Positions 6,255-26,114 are shown, counted from the stretch's first letter. The stretch is 64,000 nucleotides of DNA from Actinomycetes bacterium (GCA_021806045.1 JAJZDI010000007.1:42803-106802), one strand, 5' to 3'. Notes: generated from the sequence alone by a model not told the origin. Made by a program: numbers and translations.

Positions 6255-6815
6255 TCACTCGCCGGTCGCTGCGCGGCCCACCTCGGCACCGGCCAGGAAC
6301 GCCTCGATCTCGGCACGGCTGCGCAGGCGCACGAAGGTGAGATGGGCGCACGACGGCGCCGCCATCGCCTCCTCCAAACGTTGCCGGCGCTCGTCGAACG
6401 TGGTCCACGCCCACCGCACGACGGACCGTTCCGGGTCCCACCGCAGCAGACCGAGGACGGGCTCCCGGTTCCCGTTCCACAGTTCCTCACGGCGAAGGGC
6501 GCGCCGGAGGGTGCGCCACACCACCTGGCGCATGACCACGGCACGCGGTAGGTCGAGCCACACCACGGTGTCGGCGCGTGCCCAGACGGGGCCCTCGCCC
6601 ACCACCGCCCGGTAGTTCCCGTCGGCGACCCAGCCGGCAACCGACGTCGCGTCGTCGACGGCGGCGAGGAACGCGTTGGCGTCGGCCGGCTGCCAGCCGG
6701 GCCCGTGGAACAGTGCGTCGAGCTCGACGTGGGGGACGCCGAGCCGCCCGGCCAGCCTGCGGGCCACCGTGGTCTTCCCGGAGCCGGAGGTGCCCACCAC
6801 CGAGATGCGCCGCAC
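6255..6815 (-). CDS. AAA/adenylate-kinase-like P-loop ATPase (topology-modulation-protein-like)
   Basis: VRRISVVGTSGSGKTTVARRLA Walker A lies at the N-terminus. I chose the GTG at 6815 because the longer ATG (6926) would overlap the divergent gene. Confidence 0.7.
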   Translation of the reverse strand: MRRISVVGTSGSGKTTVARRLAGRLGVPHVELDALFHGPGWQPADANAFLAAVDDATSVAGWVADGNYRAVVGEGPVWARADTVVWLDLPRAVVMRQVVWRTLRRALRREELWNGNREPVLGLLRWDPERSVVRWAWTTFDERRQRLEEAMAAPSCAHLTFVRLRSRAEIEAFLAGAEVGRAATGE

Positions 6816-6942
6816 GCGACCATCATGCCGTTCGGGCTGCCGGTCGGGCTGCCGGACTACCGGGTAGGCGGGTGCCGGGCGCCGCCCGTGCCGTCCGGCC
6901 ACTACGGTGCGTGGCCATGGCGCCATCTGCCGGCCGCCGCCG

Positions 6943-9507
6943 ATGACCACCCATCCCCCCGCGAGCGATTCCGAGCGCGTCGCCGAGGGTGCCCCCGGGC
7001 CCGGCCCGAACAGCCCGAACAGCTCCGAGGGCGCGAGCGACGACCGGCGGGCGCTCCTCCGGGCCGCCCTCGACGCCCCCGACGAGTACCCCGCCGACCG
7101 GTTCTCCGGGCGCGGCATCGTCATCTGCGCCGGCGGGGCCCGCCTCATCACCGGCGCCTGGGTGACGATCAACGTCTTGCGCCGCACCCTCGGGTGCACC
7201 CTCCCCATCCAGGTGTGGCACCTGGGGACCGCCGAGCTGGGGCCGTTCGAACGGACCCTCTTCGAGGACCTGGGGGTGGAGGTCGTCGACGCGGCCGAAG
7301 TACGGCGGACCCACCCGGTCCGCCTCCTCGGGGGCTGGGAGCTCAAGCCCTACGCGCTGGCCCACTGCCGCTTCGCCGAGGTCCTCCTCCTCGACGCCGA
7401 CAACGTCCCCGCAGCCGACCCGACGCCCCTCTTCGACGCCTGGCAGCTGGACGAGGGGGGCGGTGCCGCCTTCTGGCCCGACGTCGAGCGCCTCACCGAG
7501 GCCAGCCCCATCTGGGACCTGGTCGGCCTCCCCTACCGGCCCGTCACCTCGTTCGAGACGGGCCAGGTCCTCCTACGCAAGGCGGACGTGTGGCACCCGC
7601 TGATGGTGGCCCTGCACCTGAACGCCCACTCCGACCTCTACTACCGGTACCTCAACGGGGACAAGGACACCTTCCTCTTCGCCTGGCTGCTCACCGGGCG
7701 CCGCTGGGCCATGCCCGGCACGCCCCCCCAGGTCCTCTCCCACACCGTCTACCAGCACGACTTCGAGGGACGGGTGACCTTCCAGCACCGGACCGGCGCC
7801 AAGTGGGTGCTGCGCGGCGACAACCGCGCCGAGCCCGGGTTCGCCCTCGAGGCCGAGTGCCTGGCCTACGTGCGTGAGCTCCGCGCCCTGTGGTCCGGGC
7901 GCATGGTCCGCATCCCCGAACGGTCCCCGGCCGCGCAGGACGCCGAACGTGTCCTGGCCACGACCCGGTGGTTCAGCTACGAGCGCCTCGGCGCCGACAC
8001 CCGGCTCCTCGAGCTCCGCAACGGCCACCGGGTCGGCCGGGGCTTCAGCCCGCACGAGCGTGCCTGGTATGTGGAGGATGGAACGGACGCCGGACCCGAT
8101 GAGCCTGATGGACCTGCTGGCGCCGACCCTGGCGGACCGGCCGGACCGCCGGCCGCGCTCCGGCTCGTCCTCCTCGGCGACGACAGCGTCACCTGCCGCC
8201 TCACCCCCGGCGACGACGGCACCTGGCGGGGAACCTGGGAGCACACACCTGGGTTCGAGGTGGAGCTCACCCCCGTGCACGAGGAAGCTGGCGTCGCTGG
8301 CGTCAATGGCAGCGCCGTTGGCACCGGCGGCGCGGTCGACATCGCCACCGGGAACGTCCCCGGCGCCAGCGGTCCCGTCCCCGGCGCACCGATGGAGGCA
8401 CCGACCCCGGTCGGCCTCGACACCGACCAGGTCCGCGGCCTGCTGGCCCACCTGTCGGCCGGCGGGCGCACCGGGGCCGAGCGTGACGCCATGGTCACCA
8501 CACTGGCCACCCTCGCCGGCGCCTTCCCCGGGCTCACCGCCCGGCTACGCCACGAGCTCACCCTGTGGGAGGCGAGAGGCGACGAGCTGGTGTGCGACGC
8601 CATCAGGGCCGCCATCGACGAGGCGGACCGGCAGGACGCCCGGGCCGGTACCCCGTCACTGCACGGGCGGCGCAACCCGGGGGCACGGCCCGAGGGGTCC
8701 CGGCCCGAGTGGCGCTACGAGCCCCTGCCCTCGCCCCCGGCGGCCACCGATCCCCGGGTGCTGGTGCTCACCCCGGTGAAGGACGCCGAAGAACACCTCG
8801 ACCGCTACTTCGAGCTGCTCGGCCGGCTCGACTTCCCGCCGGACCGCCTGTCGCTGGGCATCCTCGAAGGTGACAGCACCGATGGCACCTGGGCCGCCCT
8901 GACCGCCCGTCAGGGCGAACTGCGCCGCCGGTACCGCCGGGTGACGCTCCTCCGGCGGGACTTCGGGTTCCGGCTGCCGCCCGGCGTCCCCCGCTGGAAC
9001 CACGCCTTCCAGCTGGCCCGCCGGACGGTCCTGGCCCGGGCCAGGAACCACCTCCTCGTCGGTGCCCTGGGCGACGAGGACTGGGTCCTGTGGCTCGACG
9101 TGGACGTGTGCGACTACCCCCCGACCGTCCTCCGCGACCTGCTCGCCGCCGGCCGCGACATCGTCCAGCCCCACTGCGTGGTGGAGTACGGCGGGCCCAC
9201 GTTCGACTGGAACGCCTGGCGGGAGCACGGTCAGGTGCGGATGGACCAGCTGCGGGGCGGCCCCGACCTGATCCGCCTGGACGCCGTGGGCGGGACCATG
9301 CTCCTGGTGCGGGCGGACGCCCACCGCAACGGGCTCGTCTTCCCCCCCATGCTCTACGGCGGTGGGAGCCGGTGGGCGCGCGACCCCCACCCCGTGTTCC
9401 GTGCTCCGGGCGAGGTCGAGACGGAGGGCCTCGGGATCATGGCCAAGGACATGGGCTACGAGTGCTGGGGCATGCCCAACCTCGAGATCGTCCACGCCGA
9501 CCGGTGA
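6943..9507 (+). CDS. Bifunctional glycosyltransferase: GT71-like (Mnn1/Mnn2-type) N-domain fused to GT62-like (Mnn9/Anp1-type) C-domain
   Basis: The N-domain (~7108-7830) has GIVICAGG...[21 protein letters not shown] and GDKDTF. The C-domain (~8754-9504) has [45 protein letters not shown] and [26 protein letters not shown]. No signal peptide or TM segment is present. Confidence 0.75.
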   Translation: [854 protein letters not shown]

Positions 9508-9520
9508 CCGCCCCGGGCGC

Positions 9521-9568
9521 CCCGTCACCGGCCCGGACCGGACCCCGGTGACCGGACCGGACCGGACC
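9521..9568 (+). repeat. 2 x 24-bp tandem repeat in the spacer before the GT4 gene
   Basis: CCCGTCACCGGCCCGGACCGGACC is followed by CCGGTGACCGGACCGGACCGGACC, with a partial third unit that contains the GTG start at 9572. Confidence 0.7.
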
Positions 9569-9571
9569 GCG

Positions 9572-11017
9572 GTGAGCGGCTCCCGCCTCCTCTTCGTCAC
9601 CCCCGAGCCGCCCTCGGCCACCGGCGGGGGCCTGGCCATGCGGGCCGGCTCCGTCCTCGGCGCCCTGGCCGGTGCCGGGTGGGAGGTGCACGTCCTCGTC
9701 GTGCCGGTCCACGGGGACCGCCCCGGCGGCGGTGGGCCCCTGGTGACCCGGTTCGCGGCCGCCTACGACGTGCTCGACCTCGACGCGCTGGCTCCGGAGA
9801 GCCGCCGGCAGGCCGCCCTCGACGTGCTCGGTGACCCGGCCCTACGCCTGGCGCTCACCGCCACCTCCCCCCGACCGGCACCGTGCCGCCAGCTCGGTGG
9901 GGCCGTGGTCCGGGCCGTGACCGACCGTGCACTGGGCATGGGGCGGGAGGCAGGCGTCTCGTTCGACGCCGTCCACGTGCTGCGCCTGTACCTGGCACCG
10001 GTGCTCGACGCCCTGCTGGCCCGGCCCGACCGGCCGCAGATCACCCTGGACGTGGACGAGGACGACGCCTCCGTGGCCGGGCAGCTCCACGCGCTCGGGC
10101 GGGCGGGCGCCCGTGGCGGCCTCGTGCCCGCCGACCTGCCGGACCCGGGTGAGGACGCCGGCGACGCTCCCGCCTACGCCCCCGCCTACGAGCGCCTGCA
10201 GCGCTGGTACCTGCCCCGGGTGGACCGGGTGGCGGTGGCCAGCGCCGACGAGGCGGGCCGTCTCGAGGCCCGGTCCGGACTGGCCACCGGCACGATCGTG
10301 GTGGTGCCGAACGAGGTGCCGGCCACGGGTACGAGCACGGGTACGAGCACGGGTACGAGCACGGGTACGAGCACGGGTACGAGCACGGGTACGAGCACGG
10401 GTACGGGCACGGGCACGGGTACGGGCACGGCACCGGTCACCACCGACCTGCTGCTGGTGGGGAACTTCTCGTGGCCACCCAATGCCGACGCGGCGGTGGT
10501 CCTGTGCGACGCCGTCCGGCCCGCCCTGGCCGATGCCCTCGGCCGGCCGGTGACGGTGGCACTGGTGGGGAAGGACCCCCCGCCGGAGGTGCGTCGGCTC
10601 GGCGGGACCGCCGGGGTGACGGTGACCGGGTTCGTGGGCGACGTCGGCCCCTACTACGCTGCCGCCGGTGTGGCAGCCGTTCCCATGCGTGCCGGCGGTG
10701 GGTCCCGCATCAAGATCCTCGAGGCCATGGACCGCGGCGTCCCGGTGGTGACCACCGAGGCCGGAGCCGCCGGCCTCGACGCCGGCTCGACGCCACCGCC
10801 CGTCGTGGTGGCCCGCTCCGTCGAGGCCTTCGTCGACGGGTGCCGGCTGGTGCTGGACGATGCCGCCTGGCGCGCCCGCACGGTCCGGGCCGCCCGGCGC
10901 TGGGTGCGGGACCACCACGGTCCGCCGGCGGTGGCCACGGCCATGGGCGCCCTCGTCGGTGCCCCCGGGCGCAGGCCCCCCCGTCCTGCGGCGCGCAGAG
11001 GCAGCGATGACGGATGA
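9572..11017 (+). CDS. GT4-family (GT-B) glycosyltransferase with low-complexity (GTST)n hinge insertion
   Basis: LLFVTPEP...GGGLAMRA N-terminus. The C-domain has LLLVGNFSWPPN ... GGSRIKILEAMDRGVPVVTT (E-x7-E region). The GTG start is at 9572. Confidence 0.8.
   Translation: MSGSRLLFVTPEPPSATGGGLAMRAGSVLGALAGAGWEVHVLVVPVHGDRPGGGGPLVTRFAAAYDVLDLDALAPESRRQAALDVLGDPALRLALTATSPRPAPCRQLGGAVVRAVTDRALGMGREAGVSFDAVHVLRLYLAPVLDALLARPDRPQITLDVDEDDASVAGQLHALGRAGARGGLVPADLPDPGEDAGDAPAYAPAYERLQRWYLPRVDRVAVASADEAGRLEARSGLATGTIVVVPNEVPATGTSTGTSTGTSTGTSTGTSTGTSTGTGTGTGTGTAPVTTDLLLVGNFSWPPNADAAVVLCDAVRPALADALGRPVTVALVGKDPPPEVRRLGGTAGVTVTGFVGDVGPYYAAAGVAAVPMRAGGGSRIKILEAMDRGVPVVTTEAGAAGLDAGSTPPPVVVARSVEAFVDGCRLVLDDAAWRARTVRAARRWVRDHHGPPAVATAMGALVGAPGRRPPRPAARRGSDDG
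10325..10432 (+). repeat. In-frame 12-bp tandem repeat (GGTACGAGCACG x6, then GGTACGGGCACG-type variants)
   Basis: Six perfect units and then degenerate units are read directly from the sequence. They encode TGTSTGTSTGTSTGTSTGTSTGTSTGTGTGTGTGT between the two Rossmann halves of the GT4. Confidence 0.95.
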
Positions 11018-11342
11018 CGCCGCCGGCCTCGAGCGCCGGCCACGCAAGGTCCCCGACCTCGAGATCAGCCAGATCGTCGACGGCTACGTCGTGTACGACC
11101 CGGCCACCGACCGCATCCACTACCTGAACCACACGGCGTCCGTGGTCCTCGAACTGTGCGACGGCGAGCTGCCGGTCGACCGCATCGTCGACCTCGTCCA
11201 GGGCGCGTGGGACCTTCCCGAGCGGCCCGTCGACGAGGTCGAGGCGTGCGTGGCCCGGTTCGAGCGGGTGGGGCTGGTGGTCGACGCGGCACCACCGGAC
11301 CATGCCGATGACGGGCAGGCGGTGCCGGGCGACCCCGGATGA
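11007..11342 (+). CDS. PqqD-family (RRE-type) peptide chaperone
   Basis: 111 aa. The segment ISQIVDGYVVYDPATDRIHYLNHTASVVLELCDGELPVDRIVDLV...DEVEACVARFERVGLV matches the PqqD pattern. The gene overlaps the GT4 stop by 11 nt. Confidence 0.75.
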   Translation: MTDDAAGLERRPRKVPDLEISQIVDGYVVYDPATDRIHYLNHTASVVLELCDGELPVDRIVDLVQGAWDLPERPVDEVEACVARFERVGLVVDAAPPDHADDGQAVPGDPG

Positions 11343-12310
11343 CGGGGGTGGGGACGGCGGACCACCAGCCGATCGAGGTGCAGGTGCTGGGGGCGGCCAC
11401 CCGGCTGACCCTCGACCCATCGGTGGCCGGCGCTCTCCATCCCACCCTCGCCCTTGCCGCCCAGCGCGCACGCCAACCCGAGGCGGACCCGGCGTGGGAG
11501 GAGCTGCGTGCTGTTGCCGCCGCTCCCGGCGGCGGGGGAACGCTCCCGCTCCCGCTGTTCGCCCTGGAGCGGGAAGACGGCACCCGTCTCGCCAGCGGCG
11601 ACTCCATGACGCTGTTGAACGGCCTCCTGGCCGACGTCGAGGCCCGGGCCGCCGCCCGGGAGGGCGCCAGCGTGGTCGTGCGGGCCGGCTGCGTCCGCAT
11701 CGGCGACCGGCGTGTCGTCCTCACCGGCTGGGGGGCGCCGGGGGTGACCACCGTGCTGCTGGCCCTCGGGCGCCGTGGCCACGTGCTCGAGACCGACAGC
11801 CAGCTGTTCCTGGCTGTGGGTGGGCTCAGTGCGGTGACGCGTCGGTTCCTGGTACGGCGCCACGCCGTCGACGTCCTCGACTGGCTGGACCCGGTGCTGG
11901 CGGCGACACCGTGGCTCCAGAACCGGGCCGGCGAGACGGTCCACACCGTGGACCCCACCGCGTTCGGCATGGACTGGGAGGCGGGGCGGGGTCCCGTCGA
12001 CGCCGTCGTCGAACTGGAGGGCAACCACGGCGGCTCCAACCGGCTCCGACCCCGGTCCCGGTGGGAGGCGGTCCGGGCCCTCGCCGACCGGGCCCGCGAT
12101 CCGGCGGGTGGGCCCGGCGGGTCCCCGGCCCAGTGGCTCGGCCAGCTGTGCTCGGTGGTCGATCGGGCCCAGTGCCTGCGGCTCACGGTGGGCGATGCCG
12201 ACGGTGCGGCGACCCTCCTGGAGGAGGCGCTCTCGCAGGATCCGGCCGCGCCGACCGGCATGCACGGGCGGATCTTCGGTAGTGTGCACCAGATCGACCA
12301 AGGGGGGTAG
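11339..12310 (+). CDS. HPr-kinase-related (HprK-like) protein with degenerate P-loop
   Basis: VVVRAGCVRIGDRRVVLTGWGAPGVTTVLLALGRRGHVLETD is colinear with the HprK-like ...hAs.v...g..vll.G.sG.GKST.al.L...G..l.sD pattern. It has an ATGA overlap with the PqqD gene. Confidence 0.6.
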   Translation: MTGVGTADHQPIEVQVLGAATRLTLDPSVAGALHPTLALAAQRARQPEADPAWEELRAVAAAPGGGGTLPLPLFALEREDGTRLASGDSMTLLNGLLADVEARAAAREGASVVVRAGCVRIGDRRVVLTGWGAPGVTTVLLALGRRGHVLETDSQLFLAVGGLSAVTRRFLVRRHAVDVLDWLDPVLAATPWLQNRAGETVHTVDPTAFGMDWEAGRGPVDAVVELEGNHGGSNRLRPRSRWEAVRALADRARDPAGGPGGSPAQWLGQLCSVVDRAQCLRLTVGDADGAATLLEEALSQDPAAPTGMHGRIFGSVHQIDQGG

Positions 12311-12586
12311 GTGTCCGACGACGAGCTCGACAGGGAACTGCTCAAGCGGGTCCCGATGGACCGGAGGGAATTCGTCCGGCGGGCGGTGATCGGGGCCGCG
12401 TTCGCCGTGCCCGTGGTGGCATCGTTCGCTGCCGGCGAGCTGGCGGGCGGCCACCGGGCGTCGGCCACCCCCGAGCCTGCGTTCGCATCGAACCAGGAGG
12501 TCCCCCCGCTCGACATGCCCATCCTCGGTCATCGGGGCTACATCCCCTACGCCTACCACCCCTACCAGGTCGGCCTGGATGACTGA
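12311..12586 (+). CDS. Small secreted protein with twin-arginine signal peptide
   Basis: The GTG start follows the upstream TAG directly, with AAGGGGGG 5 nt upstream. The Tat motif is DRREFVRRAVIGAAFAVPVVASFA. The mature part (~50 aa) ends in a His/Tyr/Pro-rich tail. Confidence 0.6.
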   Translation: MSDDELDRELLKRVPMDRREFVRRAVIGAAFAVPVVASFAAGELAGGHRASATPEPAFASNQEVPPLDMPILGHRGYIPYAYHPYQVGLDD

Positions 12587-13799
12587 TGCGGACGGCTCGG
12601 TGCTGCTCAGCGCGGCACTGATCGTCCGCGACGAGGCCGAGCACCTTCCCGGCTGCCTGGCATCGTTGCACGAGCTCGTCGACGAGATCGTCGTCGTCGA
12701 CACCGGCTCCACCGACGGGTCCGCGGGCATCGCCGCGTCGGCCGGCGCACGCGTGTCCGACGTGCCCTGGAGCGGCGACTTCTCCGCCGCCCGCAACGCG
12801 GCGCTGGACCGGTGCCGGGGCACGTGGATCCTCTACATCGACGCCGACGAGCGGGTGCGCGCCGGCACGGCCGCCGCCACCCGGCAGGTGCTCGAGACGA
12901 GCGACGCGCTGGGCCTGCTGGTCGGCTTCACCCCGGCGACCGGGTTCACCTGGTACCGGGAGTGCCGCCTGTTCCGCAACGACCCCGCCATCCGGTTCGA
13001 GCGCCCCATCCACGAGCGGGTGGTGCCGGCCATCGAACGTCTCGGCCGCGCCCGACCGGGCACCGCCGCCACCGGGCCGGGCAGCGTGCCTGGCACCGGT
13101 CTCACCGGCGGGGCCGTGTGGGGGAGGGCCCCGCTCCACCTCGACCACCTCGGCTACGACAACGACCGGCCGGCCCGGCACCGCCGTGACCTCCCCCTGC
13201 TGGAGGGCGAGCTGGCCCGCCGGCCAGGCGACGTGTCGACCTGGTACCGCCTGGGCGTGGCCCGGGCCGGGCTCGGCGACGACCGCGGCGCCGAGGAGGC
13301 ATGGCGGCAGGGCGCCCGGGCGTCGGCGGACGAGGGCGACACCCACCCGCTGGGCGGCATGTGCCTGGTCGAGCTGGTGCGCCTGTGCGTGGAGCGGGGG
13401 GAGGACCCCGCCGGCCTGCTGGCCGGCGCCACCGCCCGGTTCCCCCGCAACCGGCTGCTCGTCTGGCAACGGGCCCGCCACCAGTTGGCGACCGGCGACC
13501 CGCGGCGTGCGGCCGACCTGTTCGCCGGCCTGGCCGCCACCGATCTGGAGGCCCTTGCCGGCGAGGGACTCGCCTACGACGCCCGCCTGTTCGGGTCGTG
13601 GGCGCACGACGGAGCCGGTGCGGCCGCGTTCGCGCTGGGCGACTACGAGGCGGCTGCCGCCGCGTACGCGGCGGCGGAGGCGGCCGAGCCGGGGGTGCTC
13701 GGCTACCGGGTGAAGCGGGTGGCCGCGGCCCGCCGGGCCGGGGCGGTCCGGTCGCACCCGGGGAGTACAGCGATGGTTCCGACGAGGAGGGCAGGCTGA
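12579..13799 (+). CDS. GT2 (GT-A) glycosyltransferase fused to a C-terminal TPR-like helical domain
   Basis: LSAALIVRDEAEHLPGCLAS...VVVDTGSTDGS...ILYIDADE. The Ala/Leu-rich TPR-like C-terminal half follows. The gene overlaps the upstream gene by 8 nt and the downstream gene by 1 nt. Confidence 0.8.
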   Translation: MTDADGSVLLSAALIVRDEAEHLPGCLASLHELVDEIVVVDTGSTDGSAGIAASAGARVSDVPWSGDFSAARNAALDRCRGTWILYIDADERVRAGTAAATRQVLETSDALGLLVGFTPATGFTWYRECRLFRNDPAIRFERPIHERVVPAIERLGRARPGTAATGPGSVPGTGLTGGAVWGRAPLHLDHLGYDNDRPARHRRDLPLLEGELARRPGDVSTWYRLGVARAGLGDDRGAEEAWRQGARASADEGDTHPLGGMCLVELVRLCVERGEDPAGLLAGATARFPRNRLLVWQRARHQLATGDPRRAADLFAGLAATDLEALAGEGLAYDARLFGSWAHDGAGAAAFALGDYEAAAAAYAAAEAAEPGVLGYRVKRVAAARRAGAVRSHPGSTAMVPTRRAG

Positions 13800-16700
13800 T
13801 GGGTTGGGGTACCGGAGCAGTCCGGGAGGGCGGCACCAGGCCGCCGTTCCTGCGCCGGGTGGTGGTCGCCGCCGTGGCCGGTTCGGTCGTCGGCGCCGCC
13901 GTCTTCGCCACCGTGGCCACCACGTCACACGGTCCGTCGGCGACCTCAGCGGGGTCGGGGGCGCCGTCGGGCGCAGCCCACGCCACCACGGCGAGCGTGA
14001 CGACCAGGCTGGCCACCCTCCCGCTGGCCTTCGCCCAGGGCACCACGGCGACGCCCAGCTACGTGGCCGGGGCCCCCGGCTACGACGTACAGGTCACCCC
14101 GGACCAGGTCGACCTGGCCGTCATCCGGGGAACCGGGCAGGGTGGGACGGGCACGCCGGCGCCGCGGACGGGGACCGCCCCTTCAGCGCCCACCGGTACC
14201 GCCACCAGCCAGGTCGGCCTCGACCTGGTCGGGGCCGACCCCGCCGCCCGGTTGTCCACCCAGGGCGCCCTGCCCGGGCACGTGAACATGTTCGTGGGAC
14301 CGCGCCAGTCGTGGCGCTCCGACCTGCCCACCTACTCCACCGTGGTGGCCCACGACGCCTGGCCGGGCGTCGACGTGCGCTACGCCGGTAGCAGCGGCAA
14401 CCTCGAGTACTCCCTGACGGTGGCACCCGGAGCCGACCCGTCGATCGCCCGCATGCGGCTCACCGGGGTGACCGGCCTGCACGTCGACAGCCGGGGTGAC
14501 CTGGTCGGCCAGTCGGCCGCGGGGCCGGTGACCGAGCGGTCCCTCAGCGCCTGGCAGGTGGTCGGTGGCCACCGACATGCGGTGCCGGCCTCCTACCGCC
14601 TGCAGGGCACGACCGTCTCGTTCCAGGTGGGCTCCTACGACCGGAGCCGGCCGCTCATCATCGACCCGACGGTGGTGACGGGCTACGCCACCTACCTGTC
14701 GGGCGGCCCGCTGTCCGAGGTCCTCGGCCTGGCCACCGACCAGGCCGGGAACACCTTCGCCGTCGGGTTCATCGGTGCCCCCGGGTTGGCCCCGACCTAC
14801 GGAGGCGGGCTCACCGACGCCTTCGTCACCGAGCTCGACCCGACCGGCACCCACGCCCTCTTCTCCACCTACCTCGGCGGCATCGGCGAGGACGTGGCCA
14901 CCGCCGTCGCCCTCGGCCCATCGGGGTCGATCTACGTGGCCGGCTACACCGACTCCCCCGACTTCCCCATCGTCGGCGGCACGCGCAAAACCAACGACAA
15001 CAACACGGTCTTCGGCGCCGAGAACGACGGCTTCCTCACCGTGCTCGCCGCCGGCGGGAGCAGCATCGACGCCTCCACCCTCATCGGCGGGTCGGGTGAG
15101 GACGAGATCGAGGCCCTCGCCGTCGACGCCGCCGGCAACGCCCACATCGCCGGGCTCACCACGTGGAACGACTTCCCCGGCATGGGCGGCACGGCGGGCA
15201 CGTACCAGGACTTCAACACGGCCTACCTCTACACGAGGGGCGGTTCTTATGCCAAGAACTCGTTCGCCTTCGTGGCCACCGTGGACGACAGCGCCAGCGG
15301 GCTCGTCCTCGGCCCGGTCACCAACCTCGGCAATGAGTTGCACATCGAGGTTGACGCCCTCACCCTCGACAGTTCGGGTGACGCCTTCGTGGCTGGAGGA
15401 TCCTCCGCCACGCTGGCGACGGTCGGCGGGGCCTACTCGGGGAGCACGAACAACAACTACAACAAGGACGGCGGGTTCGTGGCCGAGGTGGCACCGACCG
15501 GCAGCGTGACCTGGCTGGCGTGGATGGGCCCGGCCATGCAGCTCTACGGCATCACCCTCGACGCGGCCGGCAACGTCGACGTGGTCGGGGCGGCCTACCC
15601 CGGCCTGGCCACCACCACGGGCGTCGTCGATCCGACGGACACCACAGGCGGGCCCCAGGCCATGGCCGCCTCGCTCTCACCGAACGGGGCCACCCTCCGG
15701 TGGGCCACCTACCTCGGTGGCACCAACGGCACCTCCGAGGCCGACGCCGTCGTCGTGGCACCGGACGGCTCCCTGCTGGTGGCGGGGGGGACGGCGTCCA
15801 CCAGCGGTGTGGCCACCGCCGGGGCGCCGCAGGTCACCTACGGCGGAGGATCCTCCGACGCGTTCCTCGTCGACCTGGCACCGGACGCCACCTCCGTCAA
15901 TTGGGGCACCTACCTCGGAGGTCCGGGCGCCGACTGGGCCATGTCGATGAGCCCCGTTCCCGGCGGGGTGGCAATCGGCGGACTGGCCTCGCCGCCGTCC
16001 TTCCCGGTCACCGCGGGGAGCCTGCAGACGACCCCCTCCGGATCCCAGTACGGCTTCGTCGCCGACGTGCTGGTGGCGCCCACGGTGACCTCGGTGTCGC
16101 CGGCCTCCGGGCCGGCCACCGGTGGCACCACCGTCACCGTGAACGGAACCGGGTTCACCGGTGCCACCGCCGTGCACGTGGGTGCGGCTGCCGCTTCCTT
16201 CACGGTGGTGTCGGACACGCAGCTGACCGCCACCGTGCCGCCCGGTTCGATCGGGACCGTGGACGTGACCGTCACCGGCCCCGGCGGCACCAGCGCCACC
16301 GCCACGGGGGACCACTTCACCTACGTGGCCAGCGGCTACCGCCTGGTCGCCGCCGACGGGGGGGTGTTCGCCTTCGGGAGCGACCGCTTCGCCGGGTCGT
16401 GCCCAGCGGCGGGCTCGGTGTGCAGTGGCGTGTCCGACATCGTCGGCACGGCCGCCACCCCCGACGGCACGGGCTACTGGCTGGTGGGGGCGGACGGCGC
16501 CGTCTACCCGTTCGGCACCGCCGCCTCCTACGGGTCGATGGCCGGGCACCACCTCGACAAGCCGATGGTCGGCATGGCCGCCACCCCGGACGGTAAGGGC
16601 TACTGGCTGGTGGCCGCCGACGGCGGGGTGTTCGCCTTCGGTGACGCCGCCTACGCCGGGTCGATGGGCGGCACCCACCTGGACGCGCCGGTGGTGGGCA

Positions 16701-17122
16701 TGGTCGCCACTCCCGGTGGCACGGGCTACTGGCTGGTGGGGGCCGACGGCGGGGTGTTCGCCTTCGGGACCGCCCGCTATGCCGGATCGTGCCCGGCGCC
16801 GGGCTCGGTGTGCAGTGGCGTGTCCGACATCGTCGGCGCGGCCGCCGCCCCCGTTGGCACGGGCTACTGGCTGGTGGGAGCGGACGGCGCCGTCTACCCG
16901 TTCGGCACCGCCGCCTCCTACGGATCGATGGCCGGGCACCACCTCGACAAGCCGATGGTCGGCATGGCCGCCACCCCCGACGGCAAGGGCTACTGGCTGG
17001 TGGCCGCCGACGGCGGGGTGTTCGCCTTCGGCGACGCCACCTTCGCCGGGTCGGAAGGCAGCACCCACCTGGACGCGCCGGTGGTGGGTGTGGCCACGCC
17101 GGCGGTCCGGCTCGCCGGCTGA
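13799..17122 (+). CDS. Large (1107-aa) cell-surface protein: signal/anchor, SBBP-type beta-propeller repeats, IPT/TIG domain, C-terminal GYWLV-DGGVF-FG repeat propeller
   Basis: N-terminal hydrophobic segment VVVAAVAGSVVGAAVFATVA. Motifs of the type DAFV(T/A)(E/K)L...STYLGG recur. The IPT-like segment is PTVTSVSPASGPATGGTTVTVNGTGF. About 9 C-terminal ~40-aa repeats follow. ATG 13799 overlaps the upstream TGA. Confidence 0.8.
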   Translation: MGWGTGAVREGGTRPPFLRRVVVAAVAGSVVGAAVFATVATTSHGPSATSAGSGAPSGAAHATTASVTTRLATLPLAFAQGTTATPSYVAGAPGYDVQVTPDQVDLAVIRGTGQGGTGTPAPRTGTAPSAPTGTATSQVGLDLVGADPAARLSTQGALPGHVNMFVGPRQSWRSDLPTYSTVVAHDAWPGVDVRYAGSSGNLEYSLTVAPGADPSIARMRLTGVTGLHVDSRGDLVGQSAAGPVTERSLSAWQVVGGHRHAVPASYRLQGTTVSFQVGSYDRSRPLIIDPTVVTGYATYLSGGPLSEVLGLATDQAGNTFAVGFIGAPGLAPTYGGGLTDAFVTELDPTGTHALFSTYLGGIGEDVATAVALGPSGSIYVAGYTDSPDFPIVGGTRKTNDNNTVFGAENDGFLTVLAAGGSSIDASTLIGGSGEDEIEALAVDAAGNAHIAGLTTWNDFPGMGGTAGTYQDFNTAYLYTRGGSYAKNSFAFVATVDDSASGLVLGPVTNLGNELHIEVDALTLDSSGDAFVAGGSSATLATVGGAYSGSTNNNYNKDGGFVAEVAPTGSVTWLAWMGPAMQLYGITLDAAGNVDVVGAAYPGLATTTGVVDPTDTTGGPQAMAASLSPNGATLRWATYLGGTNGTSEADAVVVAPDGSLLVAGGTASTSGVATAGAPQVTYGGGSSDAFLVDLAPDATSVNWGTYLGGPGADWAMSMSPVPGGVAIGGLASPPSFPVTAGSLQTTPSGSQYGFVADVLVAPTVTSVSPASGPATGGTTVTVNGTGFTGATAVHVGAAAASFTVVSDTQLTATVPPGSIGTVDVTVTGPGGTSATATGDHFTYVASGYRLVAADGGVFAFGSDRFAGSCPAAGSVCSGVSDIVGTAATPDGTGYWLVGADGAVYPFGTAASYGSMAGHHLDKPMVGMAATPDGKGYWLVAADGGVFAFGDAAYAGSMGGTHLDAPVVGMVATPGGTGYWLVGADGGVFAFGTARYAGSCPAPGSVCSGVSDIVGAAAAPVGTGYWLVGADGAVYPFGTAASYGSMAGHHLDKPMVGMAATPDGKGYWLVAADGGVFAFGDATFAGSEGSTHLDAPVVGVATPAVRLAG
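16391..17038 (+). repeat. Near-identical ~258-bp direct duplication (16391-16648 and 16781-17038) inside the surface-protein gene
   Basis: The two copies differ at only about a dozen positions by eye. The period is 390 bp, equal to 130 codons. Confidence 0.9.
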
Positions 17123-17181
17123 GCCCAGCGGGTCCGGGAACGTGCCGCCACCGACCGGACCGGCTCCCCGCCACGGGCACC

Positions 17182-18069
17182 ATGACCGCAGTGACAGGTG
17201 AACCATGGGCTGTGGACGCTGCCGCGCCCATCCGACCGTCGGACAGGACCGGTGCGCCGTTCCTCGAGCCCGTCGTCGACGTGGACACCCACGTGGGACC
17301 GCTCCTGCTCCCGGCCGGCGACGGCATCATCACCCGCGCCCTGCAGGACTACGGGCTGTGGGAGAGCCAGGAGACCGCCTACCTCATCATGACGCTCCTG
17401 CCCGGCCAGACGTTCGTGGACATCGGGGCCCACGTCGGCTACTTCAGCGTCCTCGCCTCCAAGCGGGTCGGCCCCACCGGGAGGGTGATCGCCTTCGAGC
17501 CCGAGGCACGCAACCTGGACCTGTTGGAGCGGAACCTCTGGCGCAACGGGTGCGACAACGCGGCGGTCGTGCCGTACGCGTGCTCCGACCGCCCGCAGGA
17601 CCTGTCCCTCGTCCTCATCGAGGAGAACCGAGGGGCACACCACCTGGTGCCGGCGGGGCAGGGGGACGTGCCCGTCCGGTGCGTCCGTCCCGACGACGTC
17701 CTGTCCGGAACCGTCGACGTGGTGAAGATCGACGCCCAGGGCTACGACCACGAGGTGGTCGCCGGGCTGCGTCGGACGTGGACCGCCTGCCCGGACCTGG
17801 AGATGCTGGTGGAGCTGTCGTACACCGAGCTCGACCGGCGAGGCATCGAACCCCTGGACGTGCTCACCGGCTACGAGGAGCTCGGGTTCGAGCTGGCCAT
17901 CTTCGACGCCGGCGGCAACCTCACGGTCATGCCGGCCGAGGCGGTCGACGTCGTGTGCCGTGCCCGCAAGCAGTCGGACTTCACGGTCATCCTGCGTCGG
18001 CGGGAGCGCGAGGTCCGTGGGGAGGATGACGTACGGCACGCGCCCTCGCCCGCTGGGGGCGACCGGTGA
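17182..18069 (+). CDS. FkbM-family SAM-dependent methyltransferase
   Basis: FVDIGAHVGYFS SAM-binding motif, then VIAFEPEARN and VDVVKIDAQGYDHEV, typical of FkbM-family enzymes. Confidence 0.8.
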   Translation: MTAVTGEPWAVDAAAPIRPSDRTGAPFLEPVVDVDTHVGPLLLPAGDGIITRALQDYGLWESQETAYLIMTLLPGQTFVDIGAHVGYFSVLASKRVGPTGRVIAFEPEARNLDLLERNLWRNGCDNAAVVPYACSDRPQDLSLVLIEENRGAHHLVPAGQGDVPVRCVRPDDVLSGTVDVVKIDAQGYDHEVVAGLRRTWTACPDLEMLVELSYTELDRRGIEPLDVLTGYEELGFELAIFDAGGNLTVMPAEAVDVVCRARKQSDFTVILRRREREVRGEDDVRHAPSPAGGDR

Positions 18070-19007
18070 CCGGAGCCACCGGGGCCGGGCCGGGAGACCA
18101 CACCCAGCTGGCGTCGTACCGGCGATGCGTCGAGCGCATCGAGCGCGCCTGGGACGGGTTCGCCCTCCGGCGCAGGGAACGCCTCCGCCAGGGCCTCTTC
18201 GACGCCCCGGTCGAGAAGGTGGCCGAGAACATCCTGGAGGACCTCCTCACCGGGGTGCTCGACTGGGAGCTGGCCGACGTCAACCTCCAGGTGGGACGGG
18301 CCGACATCGTCCTGTCCGAACTGGGGATCAAGCGACTGGTGCTCGAGGTCAAGCGACCAGGCGCGCTGGCGTGGCACCGGGCGGCCGTCGACAAGGCGCT
18401 GGATCAGGCGCTCAGGTACGCGGCGGCGCAGAAGGTGGGGGCGGTGGCGGTGAGCGACGGGCGGATGCTGTACGCGGCGGACGTGGCCAACGGCGGGCTC
18501 CGGGACCGGCTCTTCGTGTCGCTCGATGATGCCGATCCGCCCCACGAGCTGTGGTGGCTGTCCGTGCACGGCATCTACCGCCCGTGCCCGGGACCGTCCA
18601 CACCGCTGCCGTCGGCGGCGCCGGAGCGACCGGTCGAGGAAGCTGGCGCCGAGGTCGCGGGCGAGCTCCTCCACACCACGTACCACCTGCCGGCCCGGTG
18701 CTTCGCCTACGTGGGGCGGGCCGACGCGCCGAGCACGTGGAAGCTCCCCTACCGCACCGCCGACGGCGCACCCGACGTGAAGCGGCTTCCCAAGGCCATC
18801 CAGGCCATCCTCAGCAACTACCGGGGCGCCAAGGTGAGCATCCCCCGCGAGGCGGTGCCCGACGTCCTCGTGCGCCTGTGCCAGACGGCGGCGTCGCTCG
18901 GGAAGCTCCCCTGCCAGGATGCGGCCACCGCTCCCGCCTATACCGAGGCCCACCAGGCTCTCGACCAGCTCGGGCGCCTGGCCTCGGTCGGCTGCTGCCG
19001 TTCCTGA
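18066..19007 (+). CDS. Hypothetical protein with N-terminal PD-(D/E)XK-like motif and conserved C-terminal W-K-L-P domain
   Basis: GRADIVLSE...KRLVLEVKRPG fits D...E-x-K nuclease-fold spacing. The C-terminus reads STWKLPYRTADGAPDVKRLPKAIQAILSNYRG. It has a GTGA overlap with the FkbM gene. Confidence 0.5.
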   Translation: MTGATGAGPGDHTQLASYRRCVERIERAWDGFALRRRERLRQGLFDAPVEKVAENILEDLLTGVLDWELADVNLQVGRADIVLSELGIKRLVLEVKRPGALAWHRAAVDKALDQALRYAAAQKVGAVAVSDGRMLYAADVANGGLRDRLFVSLDDADPPHELWWLSVHGIYRPCPGPSTPLPSAAPERPVEEAGAEVAGELLHTTYHLPARCFAYVGRADAPSTWKLPYRTADGAPDVKRLPKAIQAILSNYRGAKVSIPREAVPDVLVRLCQTAASLGKLPCQDAATAPAYTEAHQALDQLGRLASVGCCRS

Positions 19008-19108
19008 CCGGCGCGGCCGTCACGAGGGCCGGCCGGCGACATGCCGGTGGAGCCACCGTGCTGTCAGTACCATCTCGGCCAGGTGGAATCGACGGGAGGG
19101 GCGGGATC

Positions 19109-20908
19109 GTGAGCGACCAATCGCAGGGCGCCGGGTGGTGGCAGGCGTCTGACGGCAAGTGGTACCCGCCCGAGCTGCACCCAGGGGCCGCGGCGGTTCC
19201 CCCTCAGGTGCAGGCACCGGCGCCCACACAGGCACCAGCACAGACACCACCACCCTTGCAGACGCCAGGGCCTGTGGCCGCGCCGCCATCGCCAGGGTGG
19301 TGGCAGGCGTCTGACGGCAACTGGTACCCGCCCGAGCTGCACCCGAGTGCGCCGGCCGGGCTGCAGGTGCCCTCGACACCCCCGTCCGGATTCGCCACCG
19401 GTCCTGCCGGACCCGCCGGTCCGTTCGGGTCCGGTCCGTTCGCTCCGTTCGGGTCCGGTCCGGCCGGCACGATGCTTCCCCCGGCCGTTGCAGACGCCGG
19501 ACGGTCACGTGGCCGCCGGAACCGGACGATCCTCGTCGCGGCGATCGTCGTCCTCCTGATCGCAGGAGGTGCGGGGGTGGCGGTCGCCGACCACTCGTCA
19601 CCCACGTCGGCGCCGACGACGACGGCGGCGTCGGCGCCGACGGCGGCGGGGCCCGCCATGGGGACGCTCGACGTCCTCGGCGGCCCCGTGGCCGGCGGCG
19701 GGCACGCCATCGTGATCGACGTGACATCCGACCTCCACATGGAGCTGAGTGCCGTCGACCCCAGGAGCTCGCGGGTCGCGTGGCAGCAGCCGTTCTCCGC
19801 GTCGGAGATCACCCCCGGCGAGCCGTTCACCCCGACCGTCATCGGCAACGTCGTGATCGACCTCGCCCCGACGGGCGCGCTCACCGATCCGGCGGTGTCG
19901 ATCGAAGGGATCGACGCCACCACCGGTGTCGTACGCTGGACCTACGCAACGCCGGGCATCGCACTGGACGCACCCGTTCCCTGTGCCGGCGCCGGGACCT
20001 TCTGTCTCTCGTGGGTGACAGCTGCATCGACGTCGAGCAGCCTCATCGAGGTGAGCGCCACCACCGGGTCGTTGGTCCGCACGATCCCGAACATCGAACG
20101 CCAGCTCGGCACCGACGTCTACCAGACGGGGTCCACCACGCCCACGGTCATCCAGCTCGGCTCTCAGGGCCAGGTCGTCTGGCAGAAGGGGACGGCGTCC
20201 ATCTTCGGCTCCACCAACGACGTCCCCGACCAGGGGTGGAACATCGACCGCTTCGGGAGCATGAACGTCGGAAGCCTCGGTTCCGCACCGACGGGCAACG
20301 TGGAGGACCTCGGGTCGTCGACGACGACGGGGTTCTCCATCGCCACCGGAACGCCACGGTGGACGGACCCGGGGCTCTACAACTGCATGGGGCCGCTCGA
20401 GTTCCTGTCGACGCCGGTGATCTGCCGCCTGTCCGGCACGGTGACGGCGCCGTCCACCCCCAACGGCACACCGACGTTCTCCGGGCTCGCCCTGCAGATC
20501 GAGGGGTTCGACACGCAGACGGGGACGATCACCTGGAGCCAGCCCGACACGAACATCCAACCCATGGTGGGCTCCGGCGCCATCCCGTTCCTCGACGGCG
20601 ACCACATCGTCGTGCAACAGCACGGTGGCTTCGTGGTCCTCGACACGCAGACCGGCACGGTCGCCCCGGTACGCACCGGCGAGGTCTTCTGGTGCGCGAC
20701 CACGCCTACGGTCAACGTGGCCGTGCCGGCCGGCTCGGGCTATCCGGGCAACCGGACCGCCACTGATCGCTTCTCCGGCTGCACGGCCGACGGCACGCCC
20801 AGCACGGCTACCCACCCGGCCAACCAGCCGAGCGCCGTCGGGGTCACCATCAACGGGATCTTCCTCTGGCCGGGCCAGCACGGCCTGAGCTCCGAACGCG
20901 CGTCCTGA
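19109..20908 (+). CDS. Membrane-anchored protein: 2 x DUF2510-like (GWWQASDGxWYPPE) N-terminal repeats, one TM segment, extracytoplasmic beta-propeller-like domain
   Basis: GTG at 19109 with GGGAGGG 9 nt upstream. The TM segment is ILVAAIVVLLIAGGAGVAV. The C-terminal ~420 aa are Thr/Gly/Val-rich and propeller-like. Confidence 0.65.
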   Translation: MSDQSQGAGWWQASDGKWYPPELHPGAAAVPPQVQAPAPTQAPAQTPPPLQTPGPVAAPPSPGWWQASDGNWYPPELHPSAPAGLQVPSTPPSGFATGPAGPAGPFGSGPFAPFGSGPAGTMLPPAVADAGRSRGRRNRTILVAAIVVLLIAGGAGVAVADHSSPTSAPTTTAASAPTAAGPAMGTLDVLGGPVAGGGHAIVIDVTSDLHMELSAVDPRSSRVAWQQPFSASEITPGEPFTPTVIGNVVIDLAPTGALTDPAVSIEGIDATTGVVRWTYATPGIALDAPVPCAGAGTFCLSWVTAASTSSSLIEVSATTGSLVRTIPNIERQLGTDVYQTGSTTPTVIQLGSQGQVVWQKGTASIFGSTNDVPDQGWNIDRFGSMNVGSLGSAPTGNVEDLGSSTTTGFSIATGTPRWTDPGLYNCMGPLEFLSTPVICRLSGTVTAPSTPNGTPTFSGLALQIEGFDTQTGTITWSQPDTNIQPMVGSGAIPFLDGDHIVVQQHGGFVVLDTQTGTVAPVRTGEVFWCATTPTVNVAVPAGSGYPGNRTATDRFSGCTADGTPSTATHPANQPSAVGVTINGIFLWPGQHGLSSERAS

Positions 20909-20956
20909 TCGGCCCTTCGGTCCTGACCGGGCCGGCGGTCACGACCGCCCCGACCC

Positions 20957-21595
20957 TCAGCGCACCCCAGGCTGGCGGAACTGCACGCTGATCCTCGGCC
21001 CGACCGACCGGCGGGTCTTCGGCACCGCGTGCTCCCACGTCCGCTGGCAGCTGCCCCCCATCACGATCAGGTCCCCGTGCCCCAGCTCGAACCGGCGGCC
21101 CTGGCCGCCGCCCTGCGAGCCGCCCACAGGGCGCAGCAGGAACCGCCGTGGCTCGCCGAAGGAGACGATGGCCACCACCGTGTCGTGGGTGGCGCCGCGG
21201 CCGATGGTGTCACCGTGCCAGGCCACGCTGTCCCCACCCCCCCGGTAGAGGCACAGGCCGGCCGTACGCACCGGTCCACCCTCTTCGCCGCCGTAGCGGT
21301 CGGCCAGCGCACGACGGACCTCGTCGAGGAACGGGTGGGGCAGCCGCTCGGCCTCGCCGTAGAAGGCGACGAGGCGGGGGACGTCCACGATCCGGTCGTA
21401 CATCTTCCGGCGTTCGGCCCGCCACGGCACCTCCGTGAGCAGGTGTTCGAAGACGGCGTCGGCGTCGGTCGCCCAGCCGGGCCGGTGCTCCACCCAGGCG
21501 CCATCCCCCAGGTCCTCACGGACCAGCCCGTCGGCGAGCACGCCCAGGCCAGGACCGCCCCCGGTGTCGAACAGGCTCCTCTGGATGACCACCAC
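20957..21595 (-). CDS. alkB: Alpha-ketoglutarate/Fe(II)-dependent dioxygenase AlkB
   Basis: WHGD iron motif, LIVMGG...QRTWEHAVP and RISVQFR (R-x-S-x-x-x-R). The GTG start lies 11 nt after the marR stop. Confidence 0.85.
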   Translation of the reverse strand: MVVIQRSLFDTGGGPGLGVLADGLVREDLGDGAWVEHRPGWATDADAVFEHLLTEVPWRAERRKMYDRIVDVPRLVAFYGEAERLPHPFLDEVRRALADRYGGEEGGPVRTAGLCLYRGGGDSVAWHGDTIGRGATHDTVVAIVSFGEPRRFLLRPVGGSQGGGQGRRFELGHGDLIVMGGSCQRTWEHAVPKTRRSVGPRISVQFRQPGVR

Positions 21596-21606
21596 GGCCC
21601 GCCATG

Positions 21607-22059
21607 CTACCCGAACATACGTTCGGCATGGCCGAGGAGCGTGGCAAGCATGCTCCGGAGCTCCTGGAGGCGCTCCCGACCGAGCAACTCGGCCCACTCC
21701 TCCTCGAGGGCCCGGCTGCCGTCCCACAGCACCCGGACGGCGGCACGACCCCGGGCCGTCAGGCAGATCAGCTTGGCCCGGGCGTCGCCCGGGTCGTCGA
21801 CCCGCTCCACGTACCCGCCCCGCTCCAGGTTGGCCACCATCTGGGCCACGGCCTGACGGGACACCCGCAGCGTCGTCGCCAGCTCCGACGCATGGCGACC
21901 GCCACCGAGCAGGGGGACGAGGGCCTGGGCCGTCATGGGGCGCAGGTCGGCCATGCCCGCGTCGGCCAGGACCCCCCGCGCCCGAACCGTCCCCATTCTG
22001 GCAAGGACCTGGACAAGTGTGGGGACCGTCAGGTTCGGTCGGGCACCAGATTCGGCCAT
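21607..22059 (-). CDS. MarR-family transcriptional regulator
   Basis: 150 aa. The winged-HTH segment is ASELATTLRVSRQAVAQMVANLERGGYVERVDDPGDARAKLICLTARG. Confidence 0.85.
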   Translation of the reverse strand: MAESGARPNLTVPTLVQVLARMGTVRARGVLADAGMADLRPMTAQALVPLLGGGRHASELATTLRVSRQAVAQMVANLERGGYVERVDDPGDARAKLICLTARGRAAVRVLWDGSRALEEEWAELLGRERLQELRSMLATLLGHAERMFG

Positions 22060-22077
22060 CGCCGTGCAATCCTAGCA

Positions 22078-22107
22078 TTGACAGTTGACAAGGTACTTGC
22101 CTAGTCT
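22078..22107 (+). promoter_or_regulatory. Candidate sigma-70-type promoter (TTGACA-18 nt-TAGTCT) for the lipoprotein esterase, implying a leaderless mRNA
   Basis: TTGACA at 22078-22083 and TAGTCT at 22102-22107. The ATG at 22113 is only 5 nt downstream and has no SD. Confidence 0.4.
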
Positions 22108-22112
22108 GCCGT

Positions 22113-23048
22113 ATGCGCCGCTCCACGCTCACCGCGTGCACCACCACCGCCCTGGCCTGCCTGCTCGCCGCCTGCGGATCGCAGACGGTTGTGCAACCGG
22201 GGCCGTCCACGCCCGCCGCACTCCCTGTCGGCTCGTCGAGCCACGCCATCGTGGTCGGCGGGCGGACCCGCACCTACCTCGCCTACCGGCCGGCCTCCCT
22301 CTCCGGTCCCGCGCCGCTGGTCGTGATGCTGCACGGCGGTTTCGGCACCGCCGCCCTGGCCGAGCGCTACTACGGCTGGGACGCAGAGGCCGACCGCGGC
22401 CACTTCGTCGTCGCCTACCCGGACGGTCTGAACCGGGCGTGGAACACCGGGGGCGGGTGCTGCGGCACCCCGGCGAAGGAGAACGTCGACGACGTCGGCT
22501 TCATCACCGCGGTCGTCTCGGCCGTCGGGCGCTCGGTCCCCATCGACCCAAGGCGCGTCTACGTCACCGGCATCTCCAACGGCGGGATCATGGCCTACAC
22601 GCTCGCCTGCCTGACCCGGGGCGTCTTCGCCGCCATCGGCCCGGTGGCCGCCACCCAGCTCGGACCGTGCAGCACCCCCGAGCCGATCTCGGTGCTCCAC
22701 ATCCACGGCACCGCCGACACGAACATCCCCTACGACGGCAGCCAGGGTCAGGGCTACGCCCACATCCACGGCCCGTCCGTGCCGTCGGTCAACGCCACCT
22801 GGCGCTCGATCGACGGGTGCGACCCACCGGCCGTCTCCACTCAGGGGGTGGTGACCACGTCGACCGCCACCTGCCCCCAGGGCCGGGCCGTGGAGCTCAT
22901 CACCGTGGCCGGGGCCGGCCACCAGTGGCCCGGCAGCGCATCGAGGCCGGGGATCCAGCGCCTGCTCCACATCGACCCGCCGTCGACGGCGTTCGACGCC
23001 ACCGCCGTTCTCTGGGCGTTCTTCGCCGCCCACCCCCGGCCGGCCTGA
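22113..23048 (+). CDS. Secreted lipoprotein esterase (PHB-depolymerase/LpqC-type alpha/beta hydrolase)
   Basis: Lipobox LLAAC, PLVVMLHGG, and the nucleophile elbow GISNGGIM. Confidence 0.75.
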   Translation: MRRSTLTACTTTALACLLAACGSQTVVQPGPSTPAALPVGSSSHAIVVGGRTRTYLAYRPASLSGPAPLVVMLHGGFGTAALAERYYGWDAEADRGHFVVAYPDGLNRAWNTGGGCCGTPAKENVDDVGFITAVVSAVGRSVPIDPRRVYVTGISNGGIMAYTLACLTRGVFAAIGPVAATQLGPCSTPEPISVLHIHGTADTNIPYDGSQGQGYAHIHGPSVPSVNATWRSIDGCDPPAVSTQGVVTTSTATCPQGRAVELITVAGAGHQWPGSASRPGIQRLLHIDPPSTAFDATAVLWAFFAAHPRPA

Positions 23049-23076
23049 CGGACCACGGCCCGGGGCGCGAACCCCC

Positions 23077-23112
23077 GTGGCCCCGTGGCCCGTGGCCCGT
23101 GGCCCGTGCCCC
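23077..23112. repeat. Five tandem heptamers (GTGGCCC-type) between convergent genes
   Basis: GTGGCCCC GTGGCCC GTGGCCC GTGGCCC GTGCCCC, read directly from the sequence. Confidence 0.8.
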
Positions 23113-23137
23113 GGGCTTCAGAGGAACCGGTGGACGC

Positions 23138-23962: not shown

Positions 23963-24192
23963 CGGTTCATGGTGGCACGCCGGCACACCCGCCACGGCAC
24001 GGGCCGGCCGGCACCTCGGCGCGCCCTCGTGCCGTGACCGGAACGTCTGCGCTGTTTGACCGTCACGTTCCGTGCCACCAAGAGGAGGGCGCCGAATGCC
24101 GAATCCACGTTCACGGAAGTTGCGCGGCGCTCCTGGTGACGGCGCCGTCCCGTGGTGTGTGTTCGCCTCGCCTGCTGGTCCGCCGTCCCGGT

Positions 24193-25076: not shown

Positions 25077-25080
25077 TCCA

Positions 25081-26070: not shown

Positions 26071-26114
26071 CTCCGGTGCGGGGCCGTCAATCCCCGGATC
26101 AGGCCCGGCCACCG

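Follow-up and report, generated by a model that had tools for sequence, protein, structure and literature searches.

Glycosyltransferase genes such as lgtA/C, lic2A and pglE are contingency loci. The simple-sequence-repeat contingency loci found in glycosyltransferase genes of Haemophilus, Neisseria and Campylobacter have been reviewed (e.g. PMC5953494). Their tracts consist of units of 1, 4, 5 or 7 nt, and a change by a single unit shifts the reading frame and turns the gene on or off. In M. tuberculosis, the copy number of tandem repeats changes at 1e-2 to 1e-3 per chromosome, and these changes are hidden by short reads (PMC12817950). Among retaining GT4 glycosyltransferases, structures have been solved for MshA (3c48/3c4q), PimA (2gej), PimB' (3oka), BshA (5d00), the sucrose-phosphate synthase (SPS) Tll1590 (6kih) and WaaG (2iv7). 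Here we describe a 12-nt tandem array within a GT4-like glycosyltransferase gene, found in a 64-kb stretch of DNA that was analysed as a whole (hereafter, the window). We consider it likely that the array is an in-frame VNTR generated by slippage in a permissive linker, and that it is real, length-polymorphic and of little functional consequence.

A 12-nt coding repeat at the domain junction of a GT-B enzyme

The array lies on the + strand in a 489-aa open reading frame (9548-11017, stop codon included). The GTG start codon at 9548 was taken from gene calls on identical contigs (gene 3001-4422 of contig L001 maps to 9548). Six exact copies of the 12-nt unit GGTACGAGCACG, phased ACG GGT ACG AGC, follow each other head to tail at 10328-10399 (+ strand) and encode (TGTS)6. 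Downstream of these units lies a degenerate, probably older part of the array (10400-10429, + strand), made of ACG GGY hexamers that encode (TG)n and differ by synonymous GGT/GGC changes, as read codon by codon across the alleles; it is composed of GGTACGGGCACG (10400-10411), GGCACG (10412-10417) and a second GGTACGGGCACG (10418-10429). The perfectly periodic run measures 82 nt (10324-10405, or C1:53126-53207 in genome coordinates), and the tandem array in its entirety was delimited by TRF at 10324-10437 on the + strand (period 12, 9.6 copies, 93% matches, score 179). When up to one mismatch is allowed, the 12-mer occurs eight times in the window, always inside the array; shuffled sequences contain it 0.52 times on average, and none of 100 shuffles reaches eight. 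With units of at least 6 nt arranged head to tail far beyond chance, the array is a coding VNTR, or minisatellite. The original prediction had located it at 10325-10432, which is correct within 3 nt (six units followed by the degenerate tail to 10429). In the coding frame, the region reads A-(TGTS)6-TGTGTGTGT-APVTTD, flanked by VVVPNEVPA and LLLVGNFSWPPN, and the TGTS units supply 12 Thr and 6 Ser to the linker loop. A TGTS unit differs from two ACG GGY hexamers by a single G-to-A change (GGC to AGC).

The array is bordered by two Pfam matches: a weak Glyco_transf_4 match ends just before it and Glyco_trans_1_4 (PF13692) is found just after it (2.6e-21; 76.8 bits versus a cut-off of 27). PF00534 (Glycos_transf_1) also matches the protein, with 28.0 bits versus a cut-off of 26.4. 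The AlphaFold2 model of the window protein, computed from a 19-sequence alignment (mean pLDDT 82.3, pTM 0.83), displays the two Rossmann-like halves of a GT-B enzyme. In this model, the last strand of the N-domain comprises residues 250-252 (VVV) and the first strand of the C-domain residues 299-306 (DLLLVGNF); residues 253-298 are devoid of secondary structure, and pLDDT drops below 50 for residues 262-292. These two strands flank the array, which is therefore situated, as had been proposed, at the joint of the two Rossmann halves. The top 50 Foldseek matches are GT-B enzymes, mostly GT4 (MshA, BshA, SPS, PimB', WaaG), with a probability of 1.00, and a profile search of PDB sequences also placed MshA, PimA/PimB', BshA, sucrose-phosphate synthase and WaaG on top. 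These data show that the array-bearing protein has a GT-B fold and is GT4-like, with a C-terminal nucleotide-sugar-binding domain above the Pfam threshold. The window protein shares with the solved GT4 enzymes the two-Rossmann GT-B fold, the C-terminal nucleotide-sugar domain and the PN...(V/F)G connector, with profile E-values of 6e-14 to 4e-4 and Foldseek TM scores (target) of 0.65-0.73. However, it is only 13-18% identical to them and has a connector roughly double the usual length.

The strict family placement of the enzyme is less clear than its fold. The best NCBIfam match, TIGR03087 (PEP-CTERM/XrtA-system glycosyltransferase), covers residues 301-471 only, and membership of this family was rejected since the score, 99.9 bits, is far under the curated cut-off of 316.65. 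As for E-x7-E, the catalytic/donor-binding motif of retaining GT4 enzymes, every sequence of the family alignment has the second Glu (E392); when aligned with PimA, the window segment GGGSRIKILEA faces GGESFGIVLVEA, and the position of the first Glu is occupied by a Gly.

The gene belongs to a co-directional cluster. Upstream is a double glycosyltransferase in which Mannosyl_trans3 and Anp1 domains are fused (6943-9507, + strand; Pfam and L001 gene calls). Downstream on the + strand are found a 111-aa PqqD-family gene (11007-11342; Pfam PqqD, 4.5e-07; L001 4412-4747) that overlaps the stop codon of the GT4-like gene by 11 nt and matches NCBIfam TIGR04353 under its cut-off, a 323-aa protein with no Pfam or NCBIfam match (11339-12310), a 91-aa small protein (12311-12586) and a GT2 enzyme (12579-13799), these last two completing a conserved cassette, and then a large DUF7948/TIG protein. 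The order Mannosyl_trans3(-Anp1), GT4-like, PqqD and ~300-aa protein recurs in a locus of one Pseudomonadota MAG (L021 2466-7718), whose glycosyltransferase is ~30% identical and in which the positional counterpart of the 323-aa protein bears faint P-loop and HPr-kinase-C similarity. The order GT4-like, PqqD, P-loop/HprK-like and GT2-TPR recurs in a second Pseudomonadota MAG locus (L022 3782-7614), and one homologue (P0015) is a fusion of the glycosyltransferase with PqqD. Judging from these gene arrangements, the context suggests a peptide- or protein-directed glycosylation cassette and not a generic surface-polysaccharide pathway. The initial description of the gene product as a surface-glycan enzyme is thus doubtful, the PqqD, HprK-like, small Tat-type peptide and GT2-TPR neighbours being kept in the Pseudomonadota relatives as well.

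Two other features of the window were recorded. A 390-bp direct near-duplication (copies 92% identical; window 16334-17088) is present within the 1107-aa DUF7948/TIG gene and is the same in two independent assemblies. A ParE-toxin/PhdYeFM-antitoxin pair was identified from precomputed Pfam matches on the identical contig L027 (13128-14002, which corresponds approximately to window positions 24193-25067, - strand).

Variation of the array among related assemblies

Most of the differences between the window protein and its nearest database matches (89-99% identical) fall within the linker. The alleles compared below, and the copy numbers six and two, are drawn from short-read metagenome assemblies only. 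Contig L001 (73.5 kb, sample ERZ27237206) aligns with window positions 6548-14017 with no mismatch and one 48-nt gap, and contig L002 (50 kb, ERZ27237193) aligns with positions 6548-11206, again with no mismatch and one 48-nt gap. In both cases the gap corresponds to exactly four 12-nt units (two copies, versus six in the window). Two further contigs, L027 (window 11066-27122) and L028 (window 12283-19100), show no difference whatever, and this identity takes in the other tandem repeats of the window and the 390-bp near-duplication. Over the ~20.6 kb compared with independent assemblies, the copy number of the array is the only difference from the window. A whole-unit difference in copy number between close genomes, which characterizes coding VNTRs, is therefore observed in the assemblies. 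The recent expansion suggested at the outset agrees with these data: the units are perfectly identical and the ~20.6 kb of flanking sequence carries no substitution relative to the two-copy contigs.

When compared among strains, copy number is variable between assemblies and between strains, with five linker alleles in all and spacers of 23, 33, 39, 44 or 49 residues. The allele with six TGTS units was found only in the MAG to which the window belongs. The allele with two TGTS units is carried by six contigs from six samples, one of them an NCBI MAG (GCA_027396455.1), with in-gene flanks 94.6-100% identical to those of the window. The three others are an allele that has no TGTS unit and reads (ACG GGT)3 ... 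TAPAP (contig L015; in-gene flanks 99.6-100% identical), an 88-nt TA/TG allele (L018 and L025; 92.7-98.5%) and a 103-nt allele, whose linker is likewise of TA/TG type (L023; 94.2-96.0%). All 11 related alleles examined are in frame and full length. The locus had been proposed as a candidate contingency or length-variable locus; the second description holds, whereas the first does not. The array is not a classical contingency locus, because a 12-nt unit in the middle of an open reading frame cannot shift the frame, which is intact in all the alleles seen.

Each allele has repeated hexamers of its own, for instance (ACG GGA)3 or (ACG GCC)2, and the Thr codon is always ACG. Since selection at the protein level is not expected to yield such patterns, they point to slippage at the DNA level. 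In the most plausible scenario, the starting point would be a tract of ACG GGY hexamers, older than the 12-nt unit and translated as (Thr-Gly)n, in which one G-to-A change would have created the 12-nt TGTS unit ACG GGT ACG AGC. This unit, present in two copies in most sampled relatives, would have expanded to six copies in the lineage of the window. Growth would proceed by replication slippage within the intrinsically disordered first connector of the two Rossmann-like domains, and the enzyme fold, and probably its activity, would be preserved across changes in copy number. As the unit length is divisible by three and conserved ends (PNEVPA ... APVTTDLLLVGN) anchor the loop, gains and losses would alter only the length of an unstructured segment, and would probably be close to neutral.

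It could be argued that the array is real but that the difference between six and two copies is an artefact, caused either by collapse during MEGAHIT assembly or by mis-expansion or truncation in the scaffolded MAG of the window. All the ENA contigs indeed come from one assembler (k141_... names), and the window's MAG contains 100-N gaps, one of which falls inside a 9-nt array (C42:40656-40893), indicating that arrays trouble its assembly. In addition, the 70-nt two-copy linker is identical on six contigs although their flanks diverge by up to ~5%, a situation that could result from recombination or from assembly behaviour and not from common descent. However, at 82 nt the run falls below both the final k (141) of the MEGAHIT contigs and the length of typical reads, and a de Bruijn assembler should by this reasoning resolve or break such a run, not collapse it. 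The two-copy allele is moreover embedded in contigs of 50 and 73.5 kb and is also present in an independent NCBI MAG, GCA_027396455.1, and the other alleles differ in sequence as well as in length, which makes the linker truly variable regardless of the comparison between six and two copies. An assembly artefact is thus unlikely, and we infer that the copy numbers read in the assemblies are those of the DNA itself.

A recombination breakpoint at the array was suspected since contig L015 is 99.5% identical to the window upstream and 93.9% identical downstream. This was ruled out: both in-gene flanks of L015 are 99.6-100% identical and divergence begins downstream of the gene. Independently of the array, identity to the window shifts abruptly along the short contigs L015, L016, L017, L018, L024 and L025 (compared with window 9548-11538); L015, for example, shows 100% identity over the 3' half of the glycosyltransferase gene against ~89% over the adjoining PqqD gene. 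Such shifts are consistent either with a recombining population or with chimeric metagenome contigs.

JGI metagenome contigs were also scanned. A protein-pattern scan of these contigs found no relative, and an exact scan for 2.5 repeat units retrieved three non-orthologous loci, two Ser/Thr/Gly-rich high-GC stretches and one low-GC sequence. As these loci have nothing but the letters of the repeat in common with the array, the repeat unit does not behave as a mobile element, and the scan added no allele to the series.

Relatives at 65-69% identity possess a non-repetitive, Pro/Gly/Ala-rich linker with few Ser/Thr and no TG/TGTS tract. This composition bears on the possibility that the Thr/Ser-rich loop is a site of post-translational modification, by Ser/Thr phosphorylation or by O-glycosylation by the transferases of the operon, with copy number setting the number of sites. 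The loop is exposed and disordered, it receives 12 Thr and 6 Ser from the TGTS units, and a kinase-like protein and several glycosyltransferases are among the products of the operon; but the linkers of these relatives offer few acceptor residues, and the repeat tract of P0025, a near-identical allele, is TGTGTGT, with only four Thr and no Ser. Furthermore, the protein has no signal peptide, and the extracytoplasmic O-mannosylation typical of actinobacterial Thr-rich linkers would therefore not apply. We regard a modification site as highly improbable.

Linker length and the GT-B fold

The length of the linker was surveyed across the family in 136 representatives, clustered at 50% identity, by counting the residues of the spacer from N255 (the invariant Asn of 'PN') to G305 (the invariant Gly of 'VGN'). 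The spacer has a median of 22 residues and a range of 19-40, and ~95% of the representatives fall within 19-27. With 49 residues, the window protein has the longest spacer when set against these 136 representatives. Calculated from the linker lengths of the alleles, the spacer measures 33 residues in the two-unit allele and 23 (49 minus 26) in the TGTS-free allele, a canonical value for the family.

The natural short allele P0025, which has no TGTS units, was modelled with AlphaFold2. The model (pLDDT 83.1, pTM 0.85) has the same secondary-structure elements as that of the window protein, and only residues 262-266 are under pLDDT 50. According to these models, the repeat would add a looped-out, disordered segment between conserved anchors and leave the arrangement of the domains unchanged. 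The original prediction that copy-number changes would alter the inter-domain geometry is not supported, as the models with and without TGTS share their elements (pTM 0.83 versus 0.85) and the extra residues are disordered.

Linker length might nonetheless be a selected and rapidly mutable trait, tuning how the GT-B enzyme moves from open to closed, or how it docks to its operon partners (PqqD and the kinase-like protein), and hence yielding graded glycosylation. GT-B catalysis requires a movement of the domains from open to closed, as described in PMC8124905, the family spacer is tightly distributed (19-27 residues in most of the 136 representatives), which means that length may matter, and no fewer than five length alleles occur side by side among closely related strains. 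However, the extra residues are modelled as a disordered loop-out that leaves the domain arrangement unchanged, the C-terminal helices that cross back also join the two domains, and the occurrence of 46 similar arrays in unrelated open reading frames makes a special mechanism or selection unnecessary. Adaptive tuning of this kind is accordingly quite unlikely, and so is a selected, hypermutable length 'dial' (23, 33, 39, 44 or 49 residues) by which variants with different closure dynamics or partner docking would be kept. Were such a dial to exist in this free-living actinobacterium, it would be the graded equivalent of frameshift phase variation, working without any shift of frame, with variants of a peptide-glycosylation enzyme being maintained. 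Within the preferred reading, a slippage-generated VNTR in a permissive linker, the narrow 19-27 spacer in ~95% of the family hints at a constraint on length, and the 49-residue linker may not be wholly neutral.

Tandem repeats across the genome and comparison with known systems

The window comes from a MAG of 3.10 Mb (72% GC, 43 contigs, 97.5% complete). Counting arrays of at least four copies and at least 40 nt, this MAG holds 46 perfect tandem arrays, 38 of which have a period divisible by three; the linker array is the eleventh longest, and similar arrays lie in unrelated open reading frames. Array lengths are distributed smoothly from 40 to 165 nt. The idea that 82 nt could be a k-mer collapse length found no support by this reasoning, as no pile-up is visible in the distribution. 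Examples of arrays are found at C43:34149-34450, C31:182416-182558, C36:64123-64241 and C33:144493-144622, and several are clustered on C10, C31, C36 and C37; one 9-nt array (C42:40656-40893) is broken by a 100-N scaffold gap.

The glycosyltransferase gene itself contains further repeats on the + strand. A second 12-nt in-frame repeat, GDAPAY/APAY (APAY APAY), was detected at 10164-10190 by TRF and in alignments; 12-nt indels distinguish relatives at this site, which adjoins the other disordered loop of the protein (residues 193-205, pLDDT). A third short repeat, AGLD (10768-10794; TRF, alignment columns 434-445), is present in one, two or three copies in relatives and overlaps the family-invariant G409-L410 motif. 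A 24-nt tandem repeat of 3.5 copies, with PVTGPDRT units (9501-9580, + strand; TRF and translation), covers the stop codon of the upstream gene, the 40 nt that separate the two genes and the opening codons of the GT4-like gene, and is identical in the other assemblies compared. Taken together, these results indicate that short tandem duplications that keep the frame are common throughout this genome and are no special device of the glycosyltransferase gene.

Another conceivable reading is an action of the repeat at the nucleic-acid level, in which a sense-strand (GGGYAC)n G-quadruplex would pause replication, or translation at the domain boundary. The (ACGGGY)n part contains a G3-N3-G3-N3-G3-N3-G3 motif on the sense strand, which was identified by a regular expression as a potential G-quadruplex and possible promoter of slippage (10399-10419, + strand); with G-quadruplexes enabled, ViennaRNA places a quadruplex at this very position (-67.8 versus -61.2 kcal/mol without). 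The motif is not unusual, however, because the 72% GC genome contains 1019 of them, including 198 with loops of at most 3 nt. Moreover, the expanded TGTS units widen the spacing of the G-tracts to 9 nt, which weakens the quadruplex potential, and the TG/TGTS tract is absent from the relatives at 65-69% identity. We therefore hold an action of this type to be extremely improbable.

The locus reveals no new mechanism, since in-frame coding VNTRs are well known and dozens are present in this genome. It is a clean example of a permissive GT-B inter-domain loop that absorbs a slippage-driven repeat expansion. The natural allelic series, with 23 to 49 residues between the same anchors in one environmental population, constitutes a ready-made test of the tolerance of the GT-B hinge to changes in length, and the array could be used as a VNTR strain marker for this uncultured lineage.

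The array resembles the coding VNTRs of M. tuberculosis (PMC12817950) in its head-to-tail units of more than 6 nt, in whole-unit changes between near-identical genomes, in the in-frame bias, in the high-GC actinobacterial genome in which it resides, and in being easily missed or misjudged by short reads. However, the best-studied cases in M. tuberculosis are promoter repeats with effects on expression or concern PE/PPE surface proteins (PMC12817950), whereas the array described here occupies an inter-domain loop of a cytoplasmic enzyme. With the contingency loci of Haemophilus, Neisseria and Campylobacter, it has in common a hypermutable repeat in a glycosyltransferase gene and slipped-strand mispairing as the probable mechanism. 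In contrast to the tracts of these loci, its unit is 12 nt long, the reading frame is kept in all alleles and the gene remains on.
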